Source: an uncultured Prolixibacteraceae bacterium (GTDB lineage: Bacteria; Bacteroidota; Bacteroidia; Bacteroidales; FEN-979). Taken from it: 64,000 bases of DNA. The notes below the pieces were generated by a model, which saw nothing but the letters and a program-made list of their open reading frames with translations, did not search any database and was not told the DNA's origin. How positions within the stretch are numbered: position 1 is the first letter of the stretch; each line of letters opens with the position of its first letter. Location of the stretch: contig CAZSDU010000006.1 in the NCBI GenBank assembly GCA_964605775.1, forward strand, positions 10,258 through 74,257, in the 5' to 3' direction. Position numbers and translations under genes: made by a program. Of the stretch, positions 3,572-59,112 are shown one piece after another.

Positions 3572-5044
3572 TTAAAGATTCTTTATTTCTGCAATGAGCT
3601 TTTGCATGCTGGCTTTGGCATCACCGAATAGCATACGCGACTTGGGCATGAAGAATAGGTTGTTTTCAATGGCAGCATAACCCTTTGCCATACTTCTTTT
3701 CATGATTATCGTATTTTTTGCTTCCCAAACTTTAATAACCGGCATGCCATAAATCGGGCTGGAAGAATCTTCCTCTGCAGCTGGATTGACAACATCATTG
3801 GCGCCGATGACAATGACCACATCGGTATTCCCCATGTCGTTATTGGCTTCTTCCATTTCCTGAAGCTTCTCATAGGCAACGTCCGCTTCAGCAAGAAGGA
3901 CATTCATATGGCCTGGCATACGTCCGGCAACCGGATGAATGCCATATTTTAATTCGACACCTTTTGTTCCGAGCAGGTTTTCCAGCTCATGGCACAGATG
4001 CTGTGCCTGGGCTACAGCTAAGCCATAACCTGGAACGATCAATACTTTCTGGGAATAACTTAGCAATACTGCAGCATCGCTAAGGGATATTTCTTTTACG
4101 GTTTTATCCACACCTGATGCAGTTGAAGCAGAGCTTCCGCCAAAGGCCCCGATGATGACATTTAGCAGCGAACGATTCATGGCCTTGCACATGAGAATGG
4201 TCAATATCGTGCCTGATGAGCCGACGAGTATTCCTCCGGTTAGCATCGCCTGGTTATGATAGAGAAATCCTCCCATAGCCGCTGCAACCCCGGTAAAAGA
4301 ATTCAATAAGGAAATAACGACCGGCATATCAGCGCCTCCGATTGGCATAACAAAAGTAACACCATAAACCAACGCGAGTCCTGCCAGGACATAGATCATC
4401 CAGTTTTCCCCATCCACAGGCTCCTTGAACATGATAAATACCACAAAAATCAATAGAATGACCAGAAAAGCAAGATTGATAAATCTTAAGACCGGATTTT
4501 TTATATCTCCTAAACGCTCATCCAGTTTTCCAAAAGCAATCATAGAGCCTGCAAAGGAAACTCCCCCTATCATCAATCCCAGAAGTATGGCCAGTGCTTC
4601 TCCGTTTAGCATGGTGGTGGCGTGTTCACTGGCCAACATGGTTTGCATTCTTGGAAATTCCATCATCGAAATCAGTGCCGCACAGGCACCACCCATCCCG
4701 TTGAACAGGGAAACCATCTGTGGCATGGCGGTCATCTTCACTTTTTTTGCAGCCATCCAACCGGTTACTGATCCGATAAACAGCGCAACGAGAATCCATC
4801 CTAAATTGTGGATTCTTTGAAAGCTTCCGTCATCCATTTTTGTTTTATGAAAAAGAATGGTAAAAAGGATTGCCAATCCCATTCCCGCTGCTGCCCATAG
4901 GTTTCCGCTCCTTGCCGTATCCGGATGGCTGAGCTTTTTCAGCCCCATGATGAATAAAATAGAGGCCAGGATATAAGATAATTCCAGAATGGAGAGATAA
5001 GGGGAAAAATCAAAGTTTTTTGTCAGTGTAATGATCGTTTCCAT
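3572..5044 (-). CDS. pntB: NAD(P) transhydrogenase subunit beta
   Basis: 490 aa. The N-terminal half is multi-TM and the C-terminal half is an NADP(H)-binding domain III (GYGLAVAQAQH, HPVAGRMPGHMNVLLAEA, VIGANDVVNPAA). Confidence 0.9.
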   Translation of the reverse strand: METIITLTKNFDFSPYLSILELSYILASILFIMGLKKLSHPDTARSGNLWAAAGMGLAILFTILFHKTKMDDGSFQRIHNLGWILVALFIGSVTGWMAAKKVKMTAMPQMVSLFNGMGGACAALISMMEFPRMQTMLASEHATTMLNGEALAILLGLMIGGVSFAGSMIAFGKLDERLGDIKNPVLRFINLAFLVILLIFVVFIMFKEPVDGENWMIYVLAGLALVYGVTFVMPIGGADMPVVISLLNSFTGVAAAMGGFLYHNQAMLTGGILVGSSGTILTILMCKAMNRSLLNVIIGAFGGSSASTASGVDKTVKEISLSDAAVLLSYSQKVLIVPGYGLAVAQAQHLCHELENLLGTKGVELKYGIHPVAGRMPGHMNVLLAEADVAYEKLQEMEEANNDMGNTDVVIVIGANDVVNPAAEEDSSSPIYGMPVIKVWEAKNTIIMKRSMAKGYAAIENNLFFMPKSRMLFGDAKASMQKLIAEIKNL

Positions 5045-5053
5045 AGAGATGTT

Positions 5054-5365
5054 TTATTTCCGTGTTTTCTTTTTCCTGAACATTTCGAGCATGCGGTCGG
5101 TCACCACAAATCCTCCGACCACATTCAAAGTTCCCAGGATTACTGCAATGAATCCCAGGATCATGGATAAAACATTATCCGCATGTCCCATCACAATAAT
5201 GGCACCGATAATCACTACACCATGTATGGCGTTAGCACCAGACATCAGCGGTGTATGCAATACTGATGGGACATGCGATATGACTTCTATGCCTAGAAAA
5301 ATGGAGAGGATAATGATGAAGATCGCTTCCCTGTATTCCATGAAAAAAGTTAGCATTTCATTCAT
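5054..5365 (-). CDS. pntAB: NAD(P) transhydrogenase subunit alpha part 2 (membrane part)
   Basis: 103 aa and hydrophobic. The HTPLMSGANAIHG motif is present, and the gene lies between pntAA and pntB as in split pnt operons. Confidence 0.85.
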   Translation of the reverse strand: MNEMLTFFMEYREAIFIIILSIFLGIEVISHVPSVLHTPLMSGANAIHGVVIIGAIIVMGHADNVLSMILGFIAVILGTLNVVGGFVVTDRMLEMFRKKKTRK

Positions 5366-5376
5366 TGTGAGATAAT

Positions 5377-6531
5377 TTATGAATTTATAATGGATTTGAT
5401 TCTTTCATTGGTGATTTCCTTGTTGTGCGTGATACAGGTACCCTTAATCAGGTCATCTTCCCAGTTCAGGTTAAATTCACCCTTGGTATTGATCATTAAC
5501 TTGAGAAAATTGATAACATTTTTTCCAAACATTTTACTCGCATCGGTGGGCAGGTCAACGGGGAAAAATGAATTCCCGATGATTTTCACCCCGTGAGCAA
5601 TAATGGTTTCATTGTTGCGGGTCAGTTCGCAATTTCCCCCTGTGGATGCAGCTATATCAATGATGACCGACCCCGGTTTCATTTCTTCTACCGTTTCCTT
5701 TTTAAGTAATAACGGGGCCTTCTTGCCCGGAATCTGAGCAGTACAAATCACAACATCAGACTTTTTGGCATGATCATGGATGGCCTGTGCCTGTTTCATT
5801 TTAAAATCTTCGCTTTGCTCGACAGCGTAACCGCCTGCCGTTTTATCATCGATTGCCCCTTCCACTTCCACAAATTTTCCGCCTAGTCCCTGAACTTCCT
5901 CTTTTACAGCAGCACGGACATCAAAAACTTCCACCACTGCCCCGAGTTTCCTCGATGTGGCAATGGCTTGCAAACCGGCCACTCCGGCTCCTAGTATCAG
6001 CACCTTTGCCGGAGTAATAGTCCCGGCTGCAGTCATAAACATTGGAAAGAATTTTGGAAGTGAATTTGCAGCCGTCAGTACTGCTTTATAACCTGAAATG
6101 GTGGCCATTGAAGATAGTATATCCATAGCCTGAGCACGTGAGGTGCGGGGAATCACATCCAGACTGAAACAGGTAATGTTTTTTCCGGCCATGGATTTAA
6201 CTAATTCAAGATTAAAAAAAGGATTGATCTGTGCCAGGAAAATTTTGCCTTCAGTGGAAAGGGATAATTCCTGTTCAGACAAAGGATTGATTTTTATAAG
6301 AAGCCTGGCTTCTCTGATCACCTCTTCTTTGGATGTGATTTTTGCTCCCGCGGAAATATATTCCTCATTGGATGCAAATGACCCAGATCCGGCATCTTCC
6401 TCTATGTAGAGGTCAACCCCCATCTTGACAAGGATGGAAACAGCTTCCGGAAGAAGTGCCACCCGCTGTTCGGGATATTCTTCCTTTAAAATTCCAATTA
6501 TCATAGGTTGTTTTTCTGTTTGGTGTAACAT
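5377..6531 (-). CDS. pntAA: NAD(P) transhydrogenase subunit alpha part 1 (Re/Si-specific, AlaDH-like)
   Basis: 384 aa with the Rossmann motif ILGAGVAGLQAI and an AlaDH/PNT N-terminal domain. The alternative ATG at 6504 (MIIGILKEE) fits homolog N-termini better. Confidence 0.9.
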   Translation of the reverse strand: MLHQTEKQPMIIGILKEEYPEQRVALLPEAVSILVKMGVDLYIEEDAGSGSFASNEEYISAGAKITSKEEVIREARLLIKINPLSEQELSLSTEGKIFLAQINPFFNLELVKSMAGKNITCFSLDVIPRTSRAQAMDILSSMATISGYKAVLTAANSLPKFFPMFMTAAGTITPAKVLILGAGVAGLQAIATSRKLGAVVEVFDVRAAVKEEVQGLGGKFVEVEGAIDDKTAGGYAVEQSEDFKMKQAQAIHDHAKKSDVVICTAQIPGKKAPLLLKKETVEEMKPGSVIIDIAASTGGNCELTRNNETIIAHGVKIIGNSFFPVDLPTDASKMFGKNVINFLKLMINTKGEFNLNWEDDLIKGTCITHNKEITNERIKSIINS

Positions 6532-6533
6532 GG

Positions 6534-7025
6534 TTAATCTTTGAATTTGACGGATAAATGGCTTCCATCACAAAAAGGTTTTCTTTCTGAAGATCCGCAT
6601 CGACAGAGGGCAGCGACTTCTGAATCAACCTTGATTTTTTTCTTTTTTGAATCCCGGATAATAAAATTTCCGCTGATTAGGGCCGGACCATTTTCCAAGA
6701 TCTGAATCCTGGCATATTTCGATTTCTTTTTTTCCGGAGAAGCTGTTTTCGATGAAGGGAATTTTGAGCTTTTTAAATACGTTAACGCCCTTGATGGACA
6801 ACTGTCAACTGCTTTAATGATGGCCTTGCTGTCACTGCCGTGTATATTGATCCAGGGTTTCTTTTTTGTGTTAAAGACCTCCGGAAGACCAATGATGCAA
6901 TTGGCGGAATGAATACATAACTCTGGCCTCCAGTAAACGGTTACTTCACCATTGGAATGTTGCTTTACCGTCTCTTTGTCTTTTTTGAATGATAATAGTT
7001 CTGATTTGGTGACCTTATTTGACAT
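6534..7025 (-). CDS. Fe-S protein: divergent 4Fe-4S mono-cluster domain fused to a CDGSH iron-sulfur domain
   Basis: N-terminal CIHSANCIIGLPEVF...CPSRAL is a mono-cluster ferredoxin-like pattern. C-terminal CRCGSSERKPFCDGSH is the CDGSH 2Fe-2S signature. The track start at 7121 is TTG, and the ATG at 7025 gives MSNKVTK. The stop is 2 nt from the pntAA start. Confidence 0.7.
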   Translation of the reverse strand: MSNKVTKSELLSFKKDKETVKQHSNGEVTVYWRPELCIHSANCIIGLPEVFNTKKKPWINIHGSDSKAIIKAVDSCPSRALTYLKSSKFPSSKTASPEKKKSKYARIQILENGPALISGNFIIRDSKKKKIKVDSEVAALCRCGSSERKPFCDGSHLSVKFKD

Positions 7026-7171
7026 ACAATGTATCTTAAAATTTTCGTAAAGGTAAAAATTATTAATTTTGAAAACAAAGCGATTAGTTTCTATTTCATC
7101 AAGAAATAGTTTATCTGACAAGGTTTCATTGAAACGCCTGTCTCAATGAGTAGAGTGGTATATTAAACCAT

Positions 7172-8431
7172 ATGAATATGCCTGATATAATCTATAAAAA
7201 AGTTTTCCCATCTTGTTTCCACTTGTGTTGGATTTTATTCCTGATTTTCGGATTTATCGGTACTTCCTGCAAGAAATTTCAGATTGATTTCCCGGAAATT
7301 TCTGGTCTTCAGAAAATTGAAAACTATGAAGGGGGATTTCTTTACAAGACAAATTCTGGAAAATTTCATGTAATCAGTCTTAATGGTAACTATCTCCAGA
7401 TGGGAAGGCAATATGGATATTTGCTGGGAGGTCTGATGAAAGAGTATCATCAGGAGGTTGAAAATATTATGCATGAGACCGGAATCAGTGAAAGCCAGAT
7501 GAATTCCTTCGCGCTATCTTATTATAATATGCAGCCATATCCTTTTAAACAGATGATGGACGGGATGGCCATGACCTCCGGATTGAGCGTCAGTCAGCAG
7601 CGGTTTGTCTGCAGTTCCATGAGCATGATGTACGAAGTCTGGCCGGGATGCAGCAGTATTCAAGTGTGGGAAAATTATTCCAAGGACAGGAAAATGATTT
7701 GTGGCCGGAACTGGGATGCACAAAAAGGAAGATTTAATTATTTAGGGAAATACCTTGTGATCGTACTATACAACCCGGGTACTTATGTTCAAAGCGTGGC
7801 AGAATTCAATTATGTTGGATCCCTTTCCCCACAAACGTTAATCAATGAAAAAGGACTTTATTTGGATGTTCATGCATGTCAATTGCTGGATACTATATAC
7901 TTACCCGGGCGATTACCAGCAGGTTACCTGCTTTTTTCTTTCCTACTGAACAGTACAAACATGGATGAATTATCCAGATATTTTTCTTCTACTCGGCCTG
8001 CAGTTTCTTTACTGGTAAATGCAGCAGTTGCCGAACACGCTTGCTGCTATCAATGGCCAACTTTTGATATCCATAAACGGGAAGCTGACTCTGCCGGGCT
8101 GCTGGTTTCGACCAACCACTTTATTGGTTATCCTAGAGATTGGCCATTGCTTCCTATCCCGGATGACCCGGAAAAAGCAGCTTATACGATTCAACGATTT
8201 GATAACCTGATGGAACTTGCCTGGCAAAACAAAGGGGTCATAGATACGGAGAAGATGATGACCCTAATGGAATTGACTATTCCCAATAGGGGAGCGGCAT
8301 TCCCAGATAATGACCCCAGTTATGAGACCTATTATCAGATAGTGACTGTTCCACAAGATTTAATCTGGTATGTTAAGGCGGTGAATTATTCAGATTGGGA
8401 GAAAATCCCATTAACAGAATTGTTTCGCTGA
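7172..8431 (+). CDS. lipoprotein, C45/Ntn-hydrolase-like (acyltransferase/hydrolase family)
   Basis: The signal peptide ends in lipobox GTSC. PGCSSIQVW (candidate Gly-Cys autoprocessing site) and GRNWD resemble peptidase C45 / choloylglycine-hydrolase-type Ntn hydrolases. Moderate support only. Confidence 0.45.
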   Translation: MNMPDIIYKKVFPSCFHLCWILFLIFGFIGTSCKKFQIDFPEISGLQKIENYEGGFLYKTNSGKFHVISLNGNYLQMGRQYGYLLGGLMKEYHQEVENIMHETGISESQMNSFALSYYNMQPYPFKQMMDGMAMTSGLSVSQQRFVCSSMSMMYEVWPGCSSIQVWENYSKDRKMICGRNWDAQKGRFNYLGKYLVIVLYNPGTYVQSVAEFNYVGSLSPQTLINEKGLYLDVHACQLLDTIYLPGRLPAGYLLFSFLLNSTNMDELSRYFSSTRPAVSLLVNAAVAEHACCYQWPTFDIHKREADSAGLLVSTNHFIGYPRDWPLLPIPDDPEKAAYTIQRFDNLMELAWQNKGVIDTEKMMTLMELTIPNRGAAFPDNDPSYETYYQIVTVPQDLIWYVKAVNYSDWEKIPLTELFR

Positions 8432-30842: not shown

Positions 30843-31964
30843 TTGACCGTGAAGGTAACCCACCACAATTTAAATATCACCTTAATTATTTTTTTTACCC
30901 TTGCAATAACTGTCCTTACTTCTTGTTCAAAGGATCCCATCAGGGAAATAACGGATGATCCCGATACAACGACGATTCACACTTCATACACAAATGGCAT
31001 TTTTATTATCAATGAAGGTAATTATAACTGGGGCAATGCCACCATATCTTTCATTGACGAGAAAACAGGGAATGTTCAGCAAAACATTTTCCAGAAAGCA
31101 AACCAACGGAGCCTTGGTGATGTCGCTCAATCCATGGGAATTTTCAGGGATTATGGTTTGATCTTAGTGAACAATTCTAACAAAGTAGAAGTAGTGGCCT
31201 TGAAAGATTTTAAATCCGTAAAATCCATTACTGGATTTACATCCCCAAGATATCTTGCCATTGTTGACTCAAATAAAGCTTATGTGTCTAATCTTAAAAA
31301 AGACATTACGGTCATTAACCTGAAAGATTTTACTGTCGAGAGAACGATCCAAACTCCAACCTGGACTGAGGGTTTGATTAAGTTTGACCATTATGTTTTC
31401 GTGACTAGTATTGGAAATTATTATTCTTCCAATATGAACCGCAAGGCTCAGATTTATATCATTGATGTTGATAAGGATATCATTGTAGATAGTATTGTAA
31501 CTGGCAAGGAACCCATGGGCATCGTAATGGATAGAAAACAGAAAATCTGGGTTTTGTGCACTGGCGGATATGATCATTTTGAAGCACCAAGTCTATTACG
31601 CATTGATCCTGGCTTACGCCTGATCGAGAAAACATTTACATTCCCTTTAAATAGTGGGATTCCTTCCCGTTTGTGTATCAACCCGACTGCTGACACCTTA
31701 TATTTTATTAAAGATGGTATTTATCAAATGCCGGTCGCATCGGCTGAACTTCCATCCGCTTCTTTTATCAAGTCTGAAGGAAGGTTGTTCTACGGATTGT
31801 CCATCCATCCACGAAGTGGGGCAATATTTGTCTCCGATGCCATAGATTATGTTCAGAGTGGAATGGTTTATCAATATCATCAGAAAACTGGTCAGTTAAT
31901 TAAATCATATACCGCCGGTCGTATTCCCGGGTCATTCTGTTTTACTTCCCAAACCGGAAATTAG
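30843..31964 (+). CDS. YncE-family / DUF5074 beta-propeller lipoprotein
   Basis: TTG start. The signal peptide ends in lipobox LTSCSKD. IFIINEGNYNWGNATISFID, LGDVAQSM and NKVEVVALKDF are characteristic of DUF5074 proteins, which usually sit next to TonB-dependent receptors. Confidence 0.7.
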   Translation: MTVKVTHHNLNITLIIFFTLAITVLTSCSKDPIREITDDPDTTTIHTSYTNGIFIINEGNYNWGNATISFIDEKTGNVQQNIFQKANQRSLGDVAQSMGIFRDYGLILVNNSNKVEVVALKDFKSVKSITGFTSPRYLAIVDSNKAYVSNLKKDITVINLKDFTVERTIQTPTWTEGLIKFDHYVFVTSIGNYYSSNMNRKAQIYIIDVDKDIIVDSIVTGKEPMGIVMDRKQKIWVLCTGGYDHFEAPSLLRIDPGLRLIEKTFTFPLNSGIPSRLCINPTADTLYFIKDGIYQMPVASAELPSASFIKSEGRLFYGLSIHPRSGAIFVSDAIDYVQSGMVYQYHQKTGQLIKSYTAGRIPGSFCFTSQTGN

Positions 31965-32597
31965 TATTCCGGCAGATTTTATAAGTTCCTGGAACTCTGA
32001 TAAAATCATTGCCGTCGCCCCCCAAACAATATGTTCATTGATTTCCCAGCAAGGGACGCTGAAACTGAAACCAAGCTTTATTTTTATTCTCCGGGTTTTA
32101 ATGTTTTGCTCGTTCATTAAGTCACTTATACGTACTTCAATGATCTCTGCTACTTCTCTGGGATCAGGTATAAAATCAGGTCGGCTTTTGGTAAACCCGA
32201 TAAATGGGCTTACCATATAATTACTTGGAGGAATGTAAAGGGGTGTCAATTCTCCCAAAAAATGAATGGTTGAAGCAAGAATTCCAATTTCTTCTTGGGA
32301 CTCTCTGATAGCAGTCCCCCATAGGTCAGGGTCAAAATTCTCAAACTTACCTCCGGGTAAGCTGATCTGGGATGAATGAACGCCATGATAGTCAGGTCTC
32401 TGGATAAGTACAAAAGACATCTCTTCCTGATACGGATAAAGAAGAATCAAAACACTGCTTCTTAACGGATTTTCAGGTTTAATTCTCCTCCATTTGGTAA
32501 TCCGCTTCAAAGAAGACATTCTTGATTGGGCCGAAATTCCTGGTAAAGTACCTGATAATCTATCTTTTAACTTCGAAATAATAATTTCAGAATTCAT
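31932..32597 (-). CDS. NUDIX hydrolase, CoA pyrophosphatase-like
   Basis: NUDIX box LPGGKFENFDPDLWGTAIRESQEEIGI. The upstream LLYP...VLIQR pattern is typical of the CoA pyrophosphatase subgroup. Confidence 0.8.
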   Translation of the reverse strand: MNSEIIISKLKDRLSGTLPGISAQSRMSSLKRITKWRRIKPENPLRSSVLILLYPYQEEMSFVLIQRPDYHGVHSSQISLPGGKFENFDPDLWGTAIRESQEEIGILASTIHFLGELTPLYIPPSNYMVSPFIGFTKSRPDFIPDPREVAEIIEVRISDLMNEQNIKTRRIKIKLGFSFSVPCWEINEHIVWGATAMILSEFQELIKSAGILISGLGSKTE

Positions 32598-32746
32598 GGA
32601 ATGAACAACTTTTCAACAACATTTAAACAATCTTCTGTTTTCATTTTTCTAATTTACTATAAAACAGATAAATATGATAATTATTTTATTCACAATTTGT
32701 TAATAACTATGGTTAAGAAGTTGTTCTTATAAATATTGTAAAAAAC

Positions 32747-32778
32747 TTGCATTCCGCATCCTTTTCATTGTATATTTG
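32747..32778 (+). promoter_or_regulatory. Bacteroidota sigma-A type promoter driving the orphan RNA
   Basis: TTG at 32747-32749, a 21-nt spacer, then TATATTTG at 32771-32778. It sits at the end of a very AT-rich 180-bp tract, immediately before the composition switch. Confidence 0.45.
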
Positions 32779-32784
32779 TTTTTC

Positions 32785-33093
32785 AGGTGAGCGATAAAAG
32801 GCCCAGAGAGATCAGGAGTTTGAAAGCAAAAATCGCAAGGTAGCTGCACTCAATCATCCAGCCCGAAGTTAAGCCGAGACCGCAAGAATCGAGCCTATTA
32901 AGGGTGATTTCGAAAGGGGATCCGGAACAAAGCAGACTGTAAGGAAAGCCGAGTGAAGGAACCGGGGAGAAAAGGGAAGGGGAGACCCGGAACAAGTACG
33001 ACCAGCCTAAATAACCGTAACTTGAACGTACCAGGTAACTACGGTTGCCAGGAAAACGGGATGGGAATTTCTTCGGCCAGAAGAGGTTCCCAT
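32785..33093 (+). ncRNA. candidate ncRNA of unknown class (about 310 nt, purine- and GGA-rich, own promoter and terminator)
   Basis: There are stops in all plus-strand frames. Composition changes abruptly relative to the flanks. A consensus promoter lies upstream and a 14-bp terminator hairpin lies at the 3' end. Internal repeated motifs and local hairpins are present (for example the GAAA-capped stem at 32906-32922 and CCGGG 32962-32966 / CCCGG 32986-32990). No downstream plus-strand gene exists. The 5' end is inferred, not observed. Confidence 0.5.
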
Positions 33094-33102
33094 CGGTGTT
33101 TT
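33061..33102. terminator. bidirectional rho-independent terminator
   Basis: A 14-bp stem (two G-U pairs) between 33061-33074 and 33080-33093 with a 5-nt loop. CGGUGUUUUAUU follows on the plus strand and CCCGUUUUCC on the minus strand. It is shared by the RNA unit and the convergent gene ending at 33117. Confidence 0.7.
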
Positions 33103-33116
33103 ATTCCCTACAGTTA

Positions 33117-33881
33117 TTAAAGTAAATAGGGCAGCACAGCTTTGCGGTTTTTTGGGTAATCCGGGAAAATTGAATGATACCATTGATGATGATGCAAGGC
33201 TCGAGGCAGGAGATTGACAAGGGTCCAGATGGCAAATGCAAGCCCTGGAGAACTCCAGGTAAGTAAAGCAAAACCAAACCATTCCAGAATCTCTCCAAAA
33301 TGATTCGGACAAGAAACAAACCTGAAAAAGCCTTTCATCGGGATAATATAACCTGTTTCGCCTGGTTTTCGTAAATGAATGAGAATATTATCCGATTGCC
33401 AGTTGATAAACATCCCGAAGAAAAATATTAAAATTCCAGAGATAAACCTGAAATCAAGAAGGTAAGAAAGAGGGTAATGAGATTCATTGGCCAGGCTGCC
33501 TAAAAAATACCCATTGATAAACCCATTGACGAAATTAAAACCAATAGCCATGAATACGATGGCAAGGGGCATTTTTTTTCCCTTGGTTCTCAAACGGAAT
33601 GGAAAGATGAGTGTCCGGTTGATATAATGTAATACCCAGAGGCCAAAAAAAATCCAGGTTACTGTTGGATGTATTCCTGACCCGAAAAGGTAAAAACCGG
33701 CAAAAACAAGCAATGCTGGCATTTCCATTAAAATCCAACCTGCACGGTTATCAATCATGGCGCCCCATTTTTTTGTGGTATGCCGGCCATAGGGTGCAAT
33801 GATATGGATAACCACAGGAAAAATCAAGATTGCTATGGCAATCCAGATATATACGATGAAATAAAAAGTAGATTCCTTCAT
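33117..33881 (-). CDS. 3-oxo-5-alpha-steroid 4-dehydrogenase (steroid 5-alpha-reductase) family membrane protein
   Basis: 254 aa and polytopic. The C-terminal GYIIPMKGFFRFVSCPNHFGEILEWFGFAL matches the conserved 5-alpha-reductase C-terminal domain. Confidence 0.75.
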   Translation of the reverse strand: MKESTFYFIVYIWIAIAILIFPVVIHIIAPYGRHTTKKWGAMIDNRAGWILMEMPALLVFAGFYLFGSGIHPTVTWIFFGLWVLHYINRTLIFPFRLRTKGKKMPLAIVFMAIGFNFVNGFINGYFLGSLANESHYPLSYLLDFRFISGILIFFFGMFINWQSDNILIHLRKPGETGYIIPMKGFFRFVSCPNHFGEILEWFGFALLTWSSPGLAFAIWTLVNLLPRALHHHQWYHSIFPDYPKNRKAVLPYLL

Positions 33882-38820: not shown

Positions 38821-39095
38821 TTTTATATTCTAGGTTATATGATTGAAATACAGATAGATAATTTTGATTTTTCTATTCAACGAAGATAAGAATTATCCGT
38901 GTGATAACCATGAGATTCTGATGAATTATTTTAACCCATTACTAACATGGAAATGTTAATAAATTAAGGGTTTTTGAAAAAAAATACAGGGTTTGAATCC
39001 TACCTTTGAAAAGGTATGACAGAATGCCTTTTTTTGTATATGGTTCAATTTTTGTTAGTTTTATACGTTTATTTGAAGTTCACAATTTTATAATT

Positions 39096-41633
39096 ATGGA
39101 AGCAAGGTTTTCTCAGCGTGTAAAAGACGTTTTAATATACAGCCGCGAAGAAGCTCAGCGATTGGGTAACGATTACATCGGACTTGAGCATTTTTTGCTT
39201 GGCATTATCCGGGAAGGGGATGGTTTAGCCATCAGGATATTAAGAAATCTCGGTACGGATCTGAAAGAAATCAGAAAAAAAGTGGAATTGGCTGTAGCCA
39301 GTCATAAAGAGGAGACAAAAAATCCCGAGAACCTTCCGCTGATCAAGCAAGCTGAAAGGGCCTTAAAAATCACTTACCTTGAAGCAAAGCTGTTCAATAG
39401 TGAATTAATTGGAACGGAGCATTTGTTATTGGCAATTTTAAAAGATGAAAACAACCTGGTGACTAAAACATTTTCAAATTTTGGGATCAGTTATGAGTCT
39501 GTCAAAGAGGAACTAACCCTGATCTTAACCAATGGTCAAAGCAATAAACAGTCTGACCCTCAAGATATTTTACCGAAAGATGATGACGAAGAAGATCCTG
39601 AAGAAGGTTCGAAGGCTTTTAGTTCCGGTCAGAAGAAGCCCCAGGATTCCAAATCAAAAACACCTGTTCTTGATAATTTTGGAAGAGACATTACAAAATC
39701 AGCAGAGGAAGGCCGCCTTGATCCTATTGTCGGAAGGGAGAAAGAACTTCAGCGGATTGCCCAGGTGTTAAGCCGTCGTAAAAAAAACAACCCCATATTG
39801 ATCGGGGAACCTGGTGTCGGGAAATCGGCAATAGCCGAAGGACTAGCTTTGCGCATTGTGCAAAGAAAAGTATCCAGAGCCTTGTTCAACAAACGCATTG
39901 TTTCACTTGATCTGGCTTCTCTGGTTGCCGGAACCAAATATCGTGGACAGTTCGAAGAACGCATGAAAGCGGTGCTGAATGAACTTGAAAAAAATTCAAA
40001 TATCATTCTTTTCATCGATGAGATCCATACTATTGTCGGTGCAGGAAACGCCTCAGGTTCCCTGGATGCCTCCAATATGTTCAAACCTGCCTTGGCCAGG
40101 GGTGAAATTCAGTGTATTGGTGCCACTACACTGGATGATTACCGTCAGTACATTGAAAAAGACGGAGCCCTCGAAAGACGTTTTCAGAAAGTGCTTGTCG
40201 ATCCCACCACAGCGGAAGAAACCGTTGAAATCCTCAATAATATTAAAGAAAAGTATGAGGATCATCATCTGGTTCAATATACCGATGATGCAATAAAATC
40301 CTGCGTTTCACTGACCAACAGGTACATCAGTGACCGTTATTTACCAGATAAGGCCATTGATGCATTAGACGAGGCAGGAGCCCGCGTTCATATCTCAAAT
40401 ATCCATGTCCCTGATGAAATAGTGACCATTGAAAACCAGATCGAAGAAACCCGGAAGCTTAAAATGAATGCCATTAACAGCCAGAAGTTTGAAGAAGCTG
40501 CTGATTTGAGGGATCGTGAAAGAAAATTACAGGAAAGTCTTGAACGTGAAAAAAGAAAATGGGAAGAAAACGCGAAAATAAACCGTCAGATAGTTACCGA
40601 AGAAAATGTCGCTGAAGTTGTTGCCATGATGACCGGTATTCCTGTTCAGAGAATCGCGAAAAATGAAAGCGATCGCTTACTGAATATGGAAGATGAACTT
40701 GCCGGTTCAGTCATAGGTCAGAATGAAGCCATTCAGAAAGTTGTACGATCTATCAGGAGAAACAGGGCAGGACTTAAAGATCCTAATAAACCCATCGGAA
40801 GTTTTATTTTCCTGGGTCCCACAGGGGTTGGAAAAACCCATTTGGCAAAAATTCTCGCCAGGTATTTATTTGATACCGAAGATGCCCTGGTCAGAATAGA
40901 CATGAGTGAATATATGGAGAAATTTGCCGTTTCCAGGTTGATCGGAGCACCTCCGGGATATGTCGGATATGAGGAAGGTGGGCAATTGACTGAAAAAATC
41001 CGACGTCGCCCCTACTCTATCGTCCTTCTTGATGAAATTGAAAAAGCACATCCTGATGTGTTTCATCTGTTATTACAGGTACTCGATGACGGCCAACTGA
41101 CAGACAGCTTTGGACGAAAGGTCGATTTTAAAAATACCATTGTGATCATGACTTCCAATATCGGATCCAGACAATTGAAGGATTTTGGACAGGGAGTCGG
41201 TTTTGTCACTTCAGCAAGAGAAGCTGCCAGTGCTGAGCATACAAGAGGAGTAATCGAGAATGCCCTTAAAAAAGCATTTGCCCCTGAATTTCTGAACCGG
41301 ATTGATGATGTGGTGATCTTCAATGCCCTTGAGCGTGAAGATATTCATAAGATCATTGACATAGAATTAAAACAGCTCTATGAACGGATTAAAAATATGG
41401 GATATCAGATTACCATCAGCGCTGAAGCCAAAGAATTTATTGCCGAAAAGGGATGGGATGCCCAATTCGGAGCCAGACCCCTGAAGCGAGCCATTCAGAA
41501 ATATATTGAAGATAAACTGGCAGAAGAAATCATTAAAACAAAAATTGCTCCGAATGACCTAATTGTCATTGATTTTAATAAAGAAATTGAGGAAATCAGT
41601 GTTTTGGTGAGAACTAATGAGGAGAAAGCTTAA
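39096..41633 (+). CDS. clpC: ATP-dependent Clp protease ATP-binding subunit ClpC
   Basis: Double Clp_N repeats, two AAA+ modules (GEPGVGKSAIAEG and GPTGVGKTHLAK) and the UVR motif FEEAADLRDRE. The track start at 39006 adds a hydrophobic extension, and the ATG at 39096 gives MEARFSQRVKDVL. Confidence 0.9.
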   Translation: MEARFSQRVKDVLIYSREEAQRLGNDYIGLEHFLLGIIREGDGLAIRILRNLGTDLKEIRKKVELAVASHKEETKNPENLPLIKQAERALKITYLEAKLFNSELIGTEHLLLAILKDENNLVTKTFSNFGISYESVKEELTLILTNGQSNKQSDPQDILPKDDDEEDPEEGSKAFSSGQKKPQDSKSKTPVLDNFGRDITKSAEEGRLDPIVGREKELQRIAQVLSRRKKNNPILIGEPGVGKSAIAEGLALRIVQRKVSRALFNKRIVSLDLASLVAGTKYRGQFEERMKAVLNELEKNSNIILFIDEIHTIVGAGNASGSLDASNMFKPALARGEIQCIGATTLDDYRQYIEKDGALERRFQKVLVDPTTAEETVEILNNIKEKYEDHHLVQYTDDAIKSCVSLTNRYISDRYLPDKAIDALDEAGARVHISNIHVPDEIVTIENQIEETRKLKMNAINSQKFEEAADLRDRERKLQESLEREKRKWEENAKINRQIVTEENVAEVVAMMTGIPVQRIAKNESDRLLNMEDELAGSVIGQNEAIQKVVRSIRRNRAGLKDPNKPIGSFIFLGPTGVGKTHLAKILARYLFDTEDALVRIDMSEYMEKFAVSRLIGAPPGYVGYEEGGQLTEKIRRRPYSIVLLDEIEKAHPDVFHLLLQVLDDGQLTDSFGRKVDFKNTIVIMTSNIGSRQLKDFGQGVGFVTSAREAASAEHTRGVIENALKKAFAPEFLNRIDDVVIFNALEREDIHKIIDIELKQLYERIKNMGYQITISAEAKEFIAEKGWDAQFGARPLKRAIQKYIEDKLAEEIIKTKIAPNDLIVIDFNKEIEEISVLVRTNEEKA

Positions 41634-56497: not shown

Positions 56498-58219
56498 TTA
56501 CCGTAATAAAAGCTTATCCTGGAAGATTTTTGATGTATTGGATAACTGAATAACATACATGCCTGACGGAAAACCATTACGATTTATCCTGATTTTCATA
56601 TCCTTCTGGTCCCCCTCAATTCTTTGCTGGTATTGAATCTTGCCGGTAATATCCATTATTGACAACAACCATCCCTGCGCATCACTGTACGGCAAATGCA
56701 GATCAAAACAGCCATCATTAGGGTTGGGAAAGATCATGAATTTCTGGATACTGTTTTCGGGCAGAGAAATGTTCAGGGGACGAAGTTGTACATCGAGGCG
56801 TAGCTGTTGCCGTTTTTGGATATTGATATCATTGATGGTTTTCGGGAAATATCCGGCTGCAGAAAAGGTTACACTATAAGTGCCCTGGTTGATGGGACGG
56901 GCATAGAAACCAGAAGGAAGTTTGGAATAGACAAAAGTACTGTCATTCTGAATATCGTGATTAAGTACAAAGACTTTTGCATGGAGTTTCTCTCCGGTTA
57001 CGGTGTCGGTAACGATTCCCTGAAATCCGTAGTTGGATTGCTCAATATAATTCAGGAAAGAGCGGTAATTATAGTTCCAATGAGCCATTAATTGAGATGC
57101 AGGTAAAAAATGAACTGTGGAAATCTCAATGGTGACTTCACGGCAATGTTGAAAGAAATTCATATAATCCTGCCGTCCTCCAAAAATTTGATACCAGGCA
57201 TATCCATTGGTTATTCCGTTATTAAGGTCATCAAAATACCCCGCAGGGCTATATTTTTGTGCAGTATCGGCATATTCTCTCCCAGTATATCGCCACCAGT
57301 TGTCATCCGGGGTTAATTTCGACCAGCGGTCCCAGGGGTAGTTATAGACTTCGATGCCCCCGTGAAAATTGGCTGCCATGACAAAATGGTTATTGCTGGC
57401 GTAGTCCATAAATCCAAGGGTTTCGGGTTGTTTTACTCCGGTATTCACCCCTCCCGGATCAGGAAAGTTTCGATTCAGGTCAACTCCGGCATAATTACCC
57501 CTGGTAGGATTGGTTATGGTCGAACCATTGCGGTAAGTTCCGTCAGGATTAGCGAGAGGGTTAATGAATATTTCTGTATTGTTAACGATATCGGTAATTC
57601 TTGGACTGACGCCATATCCCCTGACCAAGGAGTCGATAAGATGGAGCATAAGTACATAAGCTGTTGTTTCATCACCATGAATGCTGGAAGTATAAAAAAA
57701 TTCAGGTTCAGCTTCAGAAACATTAACAGAATCACTGATCTTAAGTGCAATGATTTTCCTTCCCAGAAGCGTACTTCCAATCGTATCCAGTCGGCAAAGT
57801 TCAGGATAGGCAGCTGCATAATAAAGCATTGTATCCAAGTATTGCTGATAGGTCGGATAGAAATTCCACAAACCGGCAGATTTCGAATACCCTTCCAGAA
57901 GTTGTGGATGTATCTCAGATTCAGGCAATATTCCACCCGGGTTGGGGAGAATGGTATAAGGAATATTCAGGTTTAGGAAAGATTCAAATTCAGTCTGGTT
58001 AGCATAGGCAAAAACTTCCTGGTCCCTGTAATTATCAATAGAGATTGTCCTTGTCAAAAGATCGAGTGCATTTCTGTCGTTCAGGGTAAATTTAAAATAA
58101 ACCTCTCCCCAGTCCCTAAAAATACTATCCGTTGTTTTCTGATCCATGGTTTGTGAGAAAAGATCCAGCGTAAAGAACGACAAGGTTAAGGTTAGCAGAA
58201 TGATCAGTAGGTGTTTCAT
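56498..58219 (-). CDS. M14-family zinc carboxypeptidase with a T9SS C-terminal sorting domain
   Basis: Signal peptide is present. SSIHGDETT is the HxxE zinc site and NFHGG carries the second His. The C-terminal FPNPNDGCFDLHL...GMYVIQLSNTSKIFQDKLLLR is a T9SS CTD. Confidence 0.8.
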   Translation of the reverse strand: MKHLLIILLTLTLSFFTLDLFSQTMDQKTTDSIFRDWGEVYFKFTLNDRNALDLLTRTISIDNYRDQEVFAYANQTEFESFLNLNIPYTILPNPGGILPESEIHPQLLEGYSKSAGLWNFYPTYQQYLDTMLYYAAAYPELCRLDTIGSTLLGRKIIALKISDSVNVSEAEPEFFYTSSIHGDETTAYVLMLHLIDSLVRGYGVSPRITDIVNNTEIFINPLANPDGTYRNGSTITNPTRGNYAGVDLNRNFPDPGGVNTGVKQPETLGFMDYASNNHFVMAANFHGGIEVYNYPWDRWSKLTPDDNWWRYTGREYADTAQKYSPAGYFDDLNNGITNGYAWYQIFGGRQDYMNFFQHCREVTIEISTVHFLPASQLMAHWNYNYRSFLNYIEQSNYGFQGIVTDTVTGEKLHAKVFVLNHDIQNDSTFVYSKLPSGFYARPINQGTYSVTFSAAGYFPKTINDINIQKRQQLRLDVQLRPLNISLPENSIQKFMIFPNPNDGCFDLHLPYSDAQGWLLSIMDITGKIQYQQRIEGDQKDMKIRINRNGFPSGMYVIQLSNTSKIFQDKLLLR

Positions 58220-59112
58220 GAGTGATCCATATTATCAATGATCCATTTAATTTGTTTATAAACATCCTTTTTCACAGGAACAAGGGGTAATCTTAACAGA
58301 TTCTGGCAGAGTCCCATAATATTCAGCCCGGCTTTGATTCCTGAAGGACTACCATCAAGGAAAAGGGAATTGATTAAATCAATTAAGCTGTAATGCAATT
58401 CCCTGGCTTTTTCAAACTCACCCAACAACCCTTTACGTACCATTTCAGAAAAAGCCCGAGGGTAAGCGTTGGCTATTACAGAGATCACACCATCGGCACC
58501 GGCGGATAACAATGGCAGAGTTAACCCATCATCACCTGAAAACACGAGAAAATCTTTGGGTTTATTTTTGATTACCTGGTAAATCTGATCAAAATTGCCG
58601 GAAGCTTCTTTAATCCCAATAATATTGGGGACCTCACAGGCCAGCCTGATCGTGGTAGATGCACTGATGTTGCTGCCTGTTCGACCGGGAACAGTATATA
58701 GGATCACCGGCACAGGACTAGCTTCGGCGATGGTTTTAAAATGAAGATAGATTCCCTCCTGCTGTGGCTTGTTATAGTATGGAGATACAGATAAAATAGC
58801 AGCAATATCTTTAAAGGGTGTGGCATGAATATTTAAAACAACATCGGAGGTGGAATTGCCACCAATGCCAACGACCACCGGCACTCTGTGATTTACCTTT
58901 ATTACCGAAAATTCAATCAGGGCTTTCTTTTCCTGTTTGGAAAGGGTTGAAGCTTCCCCGGTGGTGCCAAGAACAACAACAAAATCCACTCCTCCGTCAA
59001 TCACATGGTCAAGAATTTTTTCGCAGGCATCAAAATCAATGGCACCTGACTTTTTAAAAGGAGTGATCAGTGCAACCCCGGTTCCTTTAATATTTTTCAA
59101 TCCCTTTTTCAC
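58216..59112 (-). CDS. dapA: 4-hydroxy-tetrahydrodipicolinate synthase
   Basis: 298 aa with a GTG start. GTGVALITPF, VLGTTGE, YNKP and GIKEASG (catalytic Lys) are present. Confidence 0.9.
   Translation of the reverse strand: MKKGLKNIKGTGVALITPFKKSGAIDFDACEKILDHVIDGGVDFVVVLGTTGEASTLSKQEKKALIEFSVIKVNHRVPVVVGIGGNSTSDVVLNIHATPFKDIAAILSVSPYYNKPQQEGIYLHFKTIAEASPVPVILYTVPGRTGSNISASTTIRLACEVPNIIGIKEASGNFDQIYQVIKNKPKDFLVFSGDDGLTLPLLSAGADGVISVIANAYPRAFSEMVRKGLLGEFEKARELHYSLIDLINSLFLDGSPSGIKAGLNIMGLCQNLLRLPLVPVKKDVYKQIKWIIDNMDHS

Follow-up and report, generated by a model that had tools for sequence, protein, structure and literature searches.

A stretch of 64,000 nucleotides (nt) of DNA from an uncultured Prolixibacteraceae bacterium (contig CAZSDU010000006.1 of assembly GCA_964605775.1; hereafter the window, to whose positions our coordinates refer) very likely holds a genuine gene for a structured RNA at positions 32783 to 33102 of the plus strand, a stand-alone, non-coding unit of about 320 nt. 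The RNA is a new family among structured non-coding RNAs (ncRNAs), as no described family matches it. Judged from sequence, it has the general marks of such RNAs: a structure maintained by compensatory change, no coding signal, and a predicted promoter and terminator of its own. The original prediction for this site had been a non-coding transcription unit that could be assigned to no family; the negative Rfam searches, the conservation among homologues, and the tests of open reading frames (ORFs), promoter, and U-tract described below all support it.

Covariation and non-coding status

The gene lies in a 519-bp gap between the start codon of a NUDIX hydrolase gene at 32597 (31932-32597, PF00293) and the stop codon of a steroid-5-alpha-reductase-family gene at 33117 (33117-33881, PF02544), both on the minus strand; these borders are those first proposed. 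G+C content is 0.17 to 0.27 over 32600-32800 and then 0.49 to 0.53 over 32800-33100, and both AT and GC skew are strongly positive. The abrupt switch in composition near 32785 claimed by the original prediction is therefore plain in the GC and skew profiles, while its figure of two-thirds purine was slightly high, the RNA being 63% purine and 50% GC.

Homologues were collected by two routes. Using the reductase as bait, we retrieved 30 related loci from species-representative genomes, all of them metagenome-assembled genomes (MAGs) labeled Prolixibacteraceae, Draconibacterium, Bacteroidales, or Bacteroidota and many of them from stratified lakes; nhmmer found the RNA at full length in 20 of these 30. 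A two-part pattern made from the invariant core positions and applied to metagenomes returned 56 stretches, of which 42 carried the RNA and 14 were chance matches in coding genes; the latter, which lay mostly antisense to a class II ribonucleotide reductase gene and in a phage gene, were discarded. In total there are 63 full-length or nearly full-length homologues, 54 of them distinct, all in Prolixibacteraceae-like MAGs or metagenomes. After duplicates and two truncated copies were dropped, 52 distinct full-length sequences were aligned.

RNAalifold, applied to MAFFT alignments of 21 and then of 52 sequences, returned the same architecture as a fold derived by hand. The resulting covariance model (R1) has 323 positions, 78 pairs, and 5 branch points and was used to realign the family; it aligns to window positions 32783-33105 with 270 bits, and its scores across homologues range from 187 to 333 bits. 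A first covariation scan that tolerated G-U pairs proved too noisy in so purine-rich an alignment. We compared the 78 modeled pairs with shuffled controls, in both the model-fitted and the plain MAFFT alignment. Paired cells amount to 92.2% in the former (84.8% in shuffles) and 91.0% in the latter (84.4%), compensatory change is seen at 49/78 and 48/78 pairs, respectively (30.2 in shuffles of both), and the covariation score is 0.296 (shuffles, 0.163) and 0.282 (shuffles, 0.164). In none of the five measures, and in neither alignment, did any of 500 shuffles reach the observed value, and controls in which the structure was slid along the alignment scored only 0.04 to 0.09 in both. Because the plain MAFFT alignment agrees with the model-fitted one, the signal is no artifact of fitting. 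The alignment-based covariation check suggested with the original prediction thus came out in its favor, with 48 to 49 pairs compensated.

The same alignment identifies the strand and speaks against translation. Cells holding G-U number 313 and cells holding A-C only 125, and this excess, together with the orientation of the promoter and the U-tract, establishes the plus strand. Stop codons interrupt all three plus-strand frames in the window, as had been noted for it, and in 51 of 52 homologues, and indels of 1 to 2 nt are spread across the alignment. The longest ORF differs among homologues in strand, frame, and length, so nothing here is coding; a search of the 52 homologues for a conserved ORF found none, and the non-coding reading stands.

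Known RNA families were also sought. Rfam 15 (4,227 models) gave 0 matches at gathering thresholds over the whole window. When the search of 32600-33200 was relaxed to E ≤ 10, it gave three chance-level matches of 16 to 19 bits against thresholds of 40 to 60, only one of which lies within the RNA, and ten homologous loci showed no recurring family. This Rfam search had been proposed as the first check on the locus, and neither the window nor the ten homologous loci yielded a significant family. ARAGORN detected neither tRNA nor transfer-messenger RNA (tmRNA) in the window. Searches of the literature on ncRNAs of Prolixibacteraceae and Draconibacterium, on structured RNAs of Bacteroidetes, on large orphan ncRNAs, and on the upstream palindrome described below likewise returned no description of the RNA or the motif.

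The least probable of the alternatives we considered, and one to which we give almost no weight, is that the locus encodes a diverged housekeeping RNA or a small protein, or that it is a DNA element such as a DnaA-box cluster or origin. It is true that a P1-like stem joins the 5′ and 3′ segments, as happens in ribonuclease P (RNase P) RNA and tmRNA. RNase P RNA is nonetheless excluded because the RNA is missing in close relatives and because RF00010 and RF00011 do not match even at E ≤ 10; the CR-I motif GGAAAGUCC is not in the family consensus either. For tmRNA both ARAGORN and Rfam were negative and no tag ORF is conserved, and for signal recognition particle (SRP) RNA and 6S RNA there was no Rfam match at E ≤ 10 and the consensus fold is a branched four-way junction rather than a rod. 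The absence of RNase P, tmRNA, and SRP signatures that had been reported from inspection by eye is thereby borne out. The upstream half-sites do resemble DnaA boxes, and the AT-rich, DnaA-box-like region was considered as a replication origin and rejected: the site has no GC-skew switch, genes around it do not diverge as they should, and the module is missing in relatives, an absence that is incompatible with an origin or an essential RNA alike. More generally, covariation with G-U pairs acts at the level of RNA, and no ORF is conserved.

The conserved fold and the upstream region

The fold consists of P1, an invariant internal loop (GAGCGAUAAAA / ACAAUAACCGUA), a four-way junction, three GNRA-capped arms, P10, and a terminator. 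Its elements, all on the plus strand, are as follows.

32783 to 33102, plus strand: RNA gene, about 320 nt, with a predicted 5′ end at 32783-32785 and a predicted 3′ end in the U-tract
32783 to 32788, plus strand: P1 5′ strand (UCAGGU), pairing with 33020-33025
32789 to 32799, plus strand: J1/2, GAGCGAUAAAA, 5′ side of the P1/P2 internal loop; columns 7-17 are at least 90-98% identical in the 52 sequences
32800 to 32802, plus strand: P2 5′ strand (GGC), pairing with 33005-33007 and opening the four-way junction with almost no linker
32803 to 32813, plus strand: P3 5′ strand (including GAGAUC), pairing with 32906-32917
32815 to 32859, plus strand: P4 arm, inside P3; long irregular hairpin capped by a GNRA (GCAA) tetraloop, its internal loop (GGUGAAAGC / AGCACUC) conserved
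32860 to 32905, plus strand: P5 region, also inside P3; variable except for a C-GCAA-G tetraloop hairpin (32880-32887) that is nearly invariant
32906 to 32917, plus strand: P3 3′ strand (including GAUUUC), pairing with 32803-32813
32918 to 32963, plus strand: P6-P7 arm; 5-bp stem, two internal loops, and an apical GNRA-capped stem
32965 to 33003, plus strand: P8-P9 arm; 2-bp stem, purine-rich internal loop (AAGAAA / GAGUAA), P9, and a GGG/CCC hairpin
33005 to 33007, plus strand: P2 3′ strand, pairing with 32800-32802
33008 to 33019, plus strand: J2/1, (C)UAAAUAACCGUA (family ACAAUAACCGUA), 3′ side of the P1/P2 internal loop
33020 to 33025, plus strand: P1 3′ strand (ACUUGA), pairing with 32783-32788
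33027 to 33058, plus strand: P10, 3′ hairpin domain with a C(UACG)G-type, UNCG-like loop
33060 to 33094, plus strand: terminator hairpin of 14-15 bp, whose lower stem (GAUGGGAAC / GUUCCCAUC) is nearly invariant
33095 to 33102, plus strand: conserved U-tract, GGUGUUUU

Invariant nucleotides cluster in the internal loops and at the flanks of the junction, and the stems covary. Three of the six pairs of P1 are compensated (AU:37/GC:12; CG:21/UA:12; UA:40/GC:2/CG:1), and since covariation within P1 extends to alignment column 1 (32783), transcription probably starts at 32783-32785, which turns the earlier estimate of about 32785 into a narrow range. P2 varies as UA:28/CG:11/UG:11/GC:2 and GC:48/AU:2. 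In P3, where 6/7 modeled pairs are compensated, the distal half has been rewritten by lineage (UCAAAAAC/GUUUUUGA, GUGAAAC/GUUUCAC, CUGAAU/AUUCAG, and GAGAUC/GAUUUC), and the extended duplex has a mean energy of −5.7 kcal/mol compared to −2.6 for shuffled strands and −3.1 for partners taken across sequences. Helices of the P4 arm are 86-100% paired with 8/11 pairs compensated, and the closing pair of the P5 tetraloop hairpin is CG:51/UG:1. All 13 pairs of the P6-P7 arm are compensated (e.g., UA:22/CG:17 and GC:33/AU:10), the P8-P9 arm varies as GC:27/AU:16, GC:19/GU:18/AU:8, and GC:26/AU:12, and 6/8 inner pairs of P10 are compensated (AU:10/CG:10/UA:10; GC:29/AU:14). Within J2/1, AAUAAC.GUA is invariant in 52/52 sequences.

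Helices that had been proposed from the window alone fared less well. Those at 32906-32922, CCGGG/CCCGG, and GTACG/CGTAC are complementary in the window and are not part of the conserved fold, and the AACCGTA/TACGGTT helix shows uncompensated variation (AACAGUA and AACUGUA variants; CCACGG and CUAAGG loops) that contradicts it. A pseudoknot between J2/1 and the P10 loop (CCGUAG/CUACGG) was rejected for the same reason.

The terminator, first described as a 14-bp hairpin at 33061-33093, was recovered by a pattern scan as 15 pairs at 33060-33094 followed by GGTGTTTTAT, and the U-tract is conserved. Among its cells 99% are paired, and 6/14 pairs are compensated, these lying in the upper stem. The lower stem is nearly invariant in 52 sequences although pairing alone should matter there. 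Use as a bidirectional terminator does not explain this conservation, because in most loci the minus-strand equivalent of the U-tract contains few U residues (consensus CCCAUCCCGUCAUCC).

The original prediction had also offered, as an avowed inference, a CsrB/RsmZ-type protein sponge that acts through repeated GGA motifs, and the fold speaks against it. The count of about 12 GGA triplets was right, with 12 in the window RNA, and the sequence is indeed purine rich; as a signal the count does not hold up, the family mean of 10.9 GGA against 9.0 expected from composition being no enrichment, so that a CsrB-like sponge gains no support. Most of the triplets fall within helices of the consensus fold and not in hairpin loops, a multi-junction architecture takes the place of any repeated hairpin unit, and no CsrB, RsmY, or RsmZ model matched even at E ≤ 10. 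We consider such a sponge very improbable.

Upstream of the RNA are a putative promoter and what may be an operator.

32598 to 32685, no strand assigned: AT-rich upstream region with TTAACA/TGAACA-like repeats, GC 0.17-0.25
32686 to 32706, no strand assigned: 21-bp palindrome (9-3-9), TTATTCACAATTTGTTAATAA, family consensus TTATTAACAAATTGTTAATAA; putative transcription-factor site
32721 to 32730, plus strand: third half-site, TTGTTCTTAT (family TTGTTyATAT), a conserved block in the upstream alignment, centered at about −61
32747 to 32749, plus strand: −33 promoter element TTG, preceded by an A-run; invariant in 21/21 sequences and kept in 47/47 upstream regions
32771 to 32778, plus strand: −7 promoter element TAnnTTTG (TATATTTG); T, A, and TTTG invariant, and TAnnTTTG present in 47/47 upstream regions

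TTG/TAnnTTTG is the sigma-A promoter consensus of Bacteroidota. In the window, TTG and TATATTTG are separated by a spacer of 21 nt, exactly as first placed; both boxes are conserved and the spacer sequence varies among homologues. A sigma-70 promoter scan of the window returned nothing relevant, the sigma-70 model being unsuited to Bacteroidota promoters. With a promoter and a terminator of its own, the RNA would form an independent transcription unit, a view that also draws on its persistence without clpS and between transposases (see below) and on invariant −33 and −7 boxes around a variable spacer.

The AT-rich region follows the clpS stop codon in most relatives and the NUDIX start codon in the window; in the alignment of 47 upstream regions, motifs of the AATGAACA / TTATTAACA type recur within it about 11 nt apart, with TTTTCAACA at window position 32610. 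Between this region and the promoter lies the 21-bp palindrome GTTATTAACAAATTGTTAATAAC, which is nearly perfect, has its center at about −89 and its 3′ edge at about −78, and stands at a constant distance from the promoter in 47/47 upstream regions. It occurs once in the window, where 0 are expected by chance. A fuzzy search of 760 kb of collected sequence gave 79 matches, of which 65 were scored as adjoining the RNA and 7 more stand beside RNA slots, namely, those of loci L027 and L087-L092, including the RNA-less L089/L090 and the remnant in L027. An equivalent array of palindrome and half-sites occupies 5130-5270 in L006. The half-site TTATNAACA is one position off the DnaA-box consensus TTATNCACA, and some copies, including the left half in the window (TTATTCACA), match that consensus exactly. 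A conserved palindrome and half-sites upstream of a promoter suggest regulated expression, and the promoter is probably under a DNA-binding regulator that acts through this array.

Five unrelated loci, returned as chance pattern matches, contain a palindrome of the same 9-3-9 design, TTTTCCACA-CAA-TGTKRATAT (L054, 7955-7975; L036, 2582; L050, 7697; L061, 8049; L073, 5605). The L054 copy stands 60-80 nt upstream of the gene for a class II ribonucleotide reductase (1,142 amino acids [aa]). One type of regulator may be shared by that gene and the RNA, which we regard as a lead and not a result. Elsewhere in the window, near the junction of the ORFs 56498-58219 and 58216-59112, a self-overlapping palindrome at 58253-58264 (TGTTTATAAACA, with TTATAAACA on both strands) shares the half-site type of the RNA operator and not its 9-3-9 layout.

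Gene neighborhood, distribution, and loss

The gene order around the RNA is DUF5074, NUDIX (divergent), clpS, the RNA, and then a convergent reductase-epimerase pair. All homologues but one occupy the slot between clpS, which reads toward the RNA, and the steroid-5-alpha-reductase-like gene, which reads against it, with the NUDIX gene pointing away on the far side of clpS. The distance from terminator to reductase stop codon is 0-100 nt in all but one locus. Conservation beyond the source genome and synteny had been named as checks on the original prediction, and both are strong, with 63 loci and a constant neighborhood.

Where it is present, clpS encodes 90 aa (PF02617) on the same strand as the RNA, with its stop codon about 140 nt upstream of the promoter region. 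A functional link between clpS and the RNA was considered and is unsupported, as each persists without the other: the window, L001, L028, and L055 have the RNA and lack clpS at this place. The difference is visible when window positions 32598-32784 are set against 5268-5537 of L006, as most relatives encode ClpS between NUDIX and the RNA. In L022 an intact RNA lies between two transposase-like ORFs (574 aa and 412 aa; 4035-5759 and 6307-7545), which part it from the reductase and replace clpS and NUDIX. Farther along the window, at 39006-41633, an 875-aa AAA+ protein with two Clp_N repeats, a UVR motif, and a ClpB_D2-small domain resembles ClpC, a potential ClpS partner, more than ClpB.

Among the sequences collected, only a group of uncultured Bacteroidales, freshwater and anoxic, carries the RNA. 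Two further relatives, reached through reductase homologues, extend the family slightly: L087/L088, whose reductase is about 70% identical and whose RNA scores 206 bits, and L091/L092, at 245 bits. Two pattern scans of viral contigs gave 0 matches in one case and in the other a single chance match in a phage coding gene, with no nhmmer similarity.

Within this group the RNA is not universal. In L004, L010, L011, L019, L021, and L025, clpS stops 7-70 nt from the reductase (about 4763-4830), and the whole module of about 560 bp, comprising repeats, promoter, RNA, and terminator, is gone. In L089/L090 a 299-aa ORF without a Pfam match fills the slot (3847-4746) and the palindrome is kept. R1 finds no match in any of these loci. 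L027 (4801-4932) preserves a "mini" RNA, from which about 190 nt of the body have been deleted while the promoter, palindrome, P1, loop remnants, P10, and terminator remain, the last with a fully compensated stem (GAAGCGGAAU / GUUCCGCUUC). In a neighbor-joining tree of the reductase, a single protein and a tree without support values, RNA-less loci are scattered among RNA-bearing ones. This scatter and the clean absence of the module suggest that the RNA is ancestral to the clade, was inherited vertically, and has been lost repeatedly, hence that it is dispensable; repeated loss in turn implies an accessory or conditional role.

The constant convergence on the reductase raises the question of a riboswitch-like sensor, in which the P1-closed domain would bind a metabolite and modulate termination at 33060-33102, with read-through producing a transcript antisense to, or colliding with, the convergent reductase-epimerase operon, as riboswitches that control antisense transcripts are known to do. 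This we think unlikely, although several features would fit. P1 encloses a multi-junction domain with invariant loop nucleotides and a terminator after it, and the L027 remnant retains promoter, P1, P10, and terminator rather than the body. Yet the homologues share no anti-terminator pairing, and P1, P10, and the terminator are neighboring helices that do not overlap and can form together. The only terminator-like segment upstream is P6, which was rejected as an anti-terminator because it covaries away from complementarity to the terminator sequence. The terminator is probably constitutive, being long (14-15 bp) and followed by a conserved U-tract. As for the convergence, it holds in all but one locus, even where clpS has been lost, but inherited synteny explains it equally well, and in L022 the RNA is intact though a transposase gene parts it from the reductase. 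A riboswitch would moreover call for a gene to control on its own strand, and the next downstream feature, in the window and in homologous loci, is the stop codon of the convergent gene.

Proposed function and relation to known RNAs

The account we favor is that of a folded RNA that acts in trans by binding either a protein or a ligand, is ancestral and accessory, and has its promoter under the upstream operator; taken as a whole, we would put its chances at about even. The RNA would be transcribed from its own Bacteroidota-type promoter, its expression being set by a DNA-binding regulator through the upstream array (the palindrome at about −89, the half-site at about −61, and further repeats), and the intrinsic terminator would end the transcript. 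It would then act in trans by way of its three-dimensional fold, its partner being either a small ligand or a protein, for which it would serve as a decoy or a ribonucleoprotein scaffold. We place the putative functional site at the four-way junction and the invariant P1/P2 loop, such that the GAGCGAUAAAA / AAUAACCGUA loop residues would be needed for binding or activity and compensated changes in the stems would be tolerated. A shape-dependent function is suggested by the combination of invariant loops and junction, freely covarying stems, and three GNRA tetraloops. Linear base pairing and GGA-based sequestration both appear less likely than such fold-based action.

Several points weigh against this account and should be set beside it. 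Transcription and both RNA ends are predicted from sequence, and folding of the single window sequence is only marginally better than that of shuffles on the plus strand (z = −1.74; on the minus strand, with z = +0.56, it is no better). The 52 sequences share ancestry, which the shuffle control does not take into account. The pairs proposed between J1/2 and J2/1 never vary and so are a predicted pairing only, the P5 region outside its tetraloop hairpin aligns poorly, and a scan of the homologue alignment for additional covarying helices or pseudoknots found none that was convincing. The reductase tree is built from a single protein and has no support values, and the conserved gene neighborhood is synteny of the whole family and carries no functional signal. 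Finally, we infer action in trans, transcription-factor control, and the kind of partner.

A trans-acting, base-pairing small RNA (sRNA) would instead pair with mRNAs through a conserved single-stranded segment, for instance the purine-rich P8 loop or J1/2. The unit does stand alone with a promoter and terminator of its own, like Bacteroides sRNAs, and it has conserved unpaired stretches. We nevertheless judge this improbable. A 320-nt RNA in which 78 pairs are conserved and helices branch at five points goes far beyond what a seed-bearing sRNA needs, and the unpaired stretches that are best conserved face each other across an internal loop and so are probably not free. When the conserved single-stranded segments were searched for complementary sites, the 64-kb window, to which the search was confined, held none except the gene's own opposite strand; this narrow scope is a further weakness of the case for fold-based action.

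A catalytic RNA, that is, a ribozyme of a new class, would be in keeping with several traits that large ribozymes share, namely, the size, a fold with multiple junctions, GNRA tetraloops, and invariance of the junction nucleotides. There is no sign, however, of a cleavage or ligation site, of a substrate, or of an association with mobile elements or processing targets, and repeated loss speaks against an essential role in processing. We regard a ribozyme as quite unlikely, less so than a sponge and more so than a sensor or a base-pairing sRNA.

A bolder version of fold-based action joins the RNA to its operator. The RNA would be a new class of large tertiary-structured RNA (a ribozyme, a ligand sensor, or the core of a ribonucleoprotein), and the regulator would read 9-3-9 palindromes of DnaA-box-like half-sites (TTATNMACA). 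This is a long shot. If true, it would mean that an ornate RNA is tied to a replication or nucleotide-status regulon in Bacteroidota.

Few bacterial ncRNAs exceed about 300 nt and have complex folds backed by covariation, and the RNA biology of Bacteroidota is poorly charted. Where the nature of such large ncRNAs has been worked out, they have proved to be ribozymes, the cores of ribonucleoproteins, or RNA assemblies of unusual kinds. The RNA described here is a well-defined candidate from Bacteroidota, with 54 distinct sequences, a testable secondary structure, and a candidate functional hot spot in the P1/P2 loop and junction. It also has two handles that most orphan RNAs lack: its conserved operator offers a route to the regulator and hence to the inducing condition, and its natural presence and absence offer a route, by comparative genomics, to a protein partner that covaries with it. 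Tempering these prospects, the RNA is restricted to an uncultured clade, and its features suggest no specific function.

Among known systems, riboswitches that govern antisense or non-coding transcripts, such as the B12 riboswitches that control AspocR and EutX, resemble the RNA in having a P1-closed multi-junction domain with invariant loop residues and an intrinsic terminator after it, and in having no same-strand gene downstream and one gene converging. The RNA differs from them in lacking a conserved alternative pairing between sensor and terminator and in matching no riboswitch model, and its 265-nt domain exceeds most aptamers. Bacteroides sRNAs with their own promoter and terminator, GibS for example, share with it the phylum, the TTG/TAnnTTTG promoter type, and the status of an intergenic stand-alone unit; compared to these, the RNA is 2 to 3 times longer and far more structured, with no detectable sequence kinship and no evident seed-target pairing.

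Like the protein-sequestering regulatory RNAs 6S RNA, CsrB/RsmZ, and GlmY, it has a promoter and terminator of its own, likely a regulated promoter, and a function plausibly based on shape and not on coding. The RNA matches none of their Rfam models, shows no rod with a central bubble as 6S RNA does, and has neither the repeated GGA-loop hairpins nor the GGA enrichment of CsrB/RsmZ. With OLE, ROOL, GOLLD, and the raiA motif RNA it shares a stand-alone gene, a large multi-helix fold supported by covariation, conserved loops and junctions, GNRA tetraloops, a narrow distribution, and orphan status. At about 320 nt it is longer than raiA (roughly 200 nt) and shorter than OLE, ROOL, and GOLLD (580-800 nt). 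It differs from them further in its phylum, in matching no Rfam model of theirs, in showing no link to phages or tRNAs, and in having a conserved upstream palindrome of its own. A member of none of these groups, the RNA is nearest in kind to the orphan "ornate" RNAs (OLE, ROOL, GOLLD, and raiA) and to the shape-based regulators 6S RNA and GlmY.

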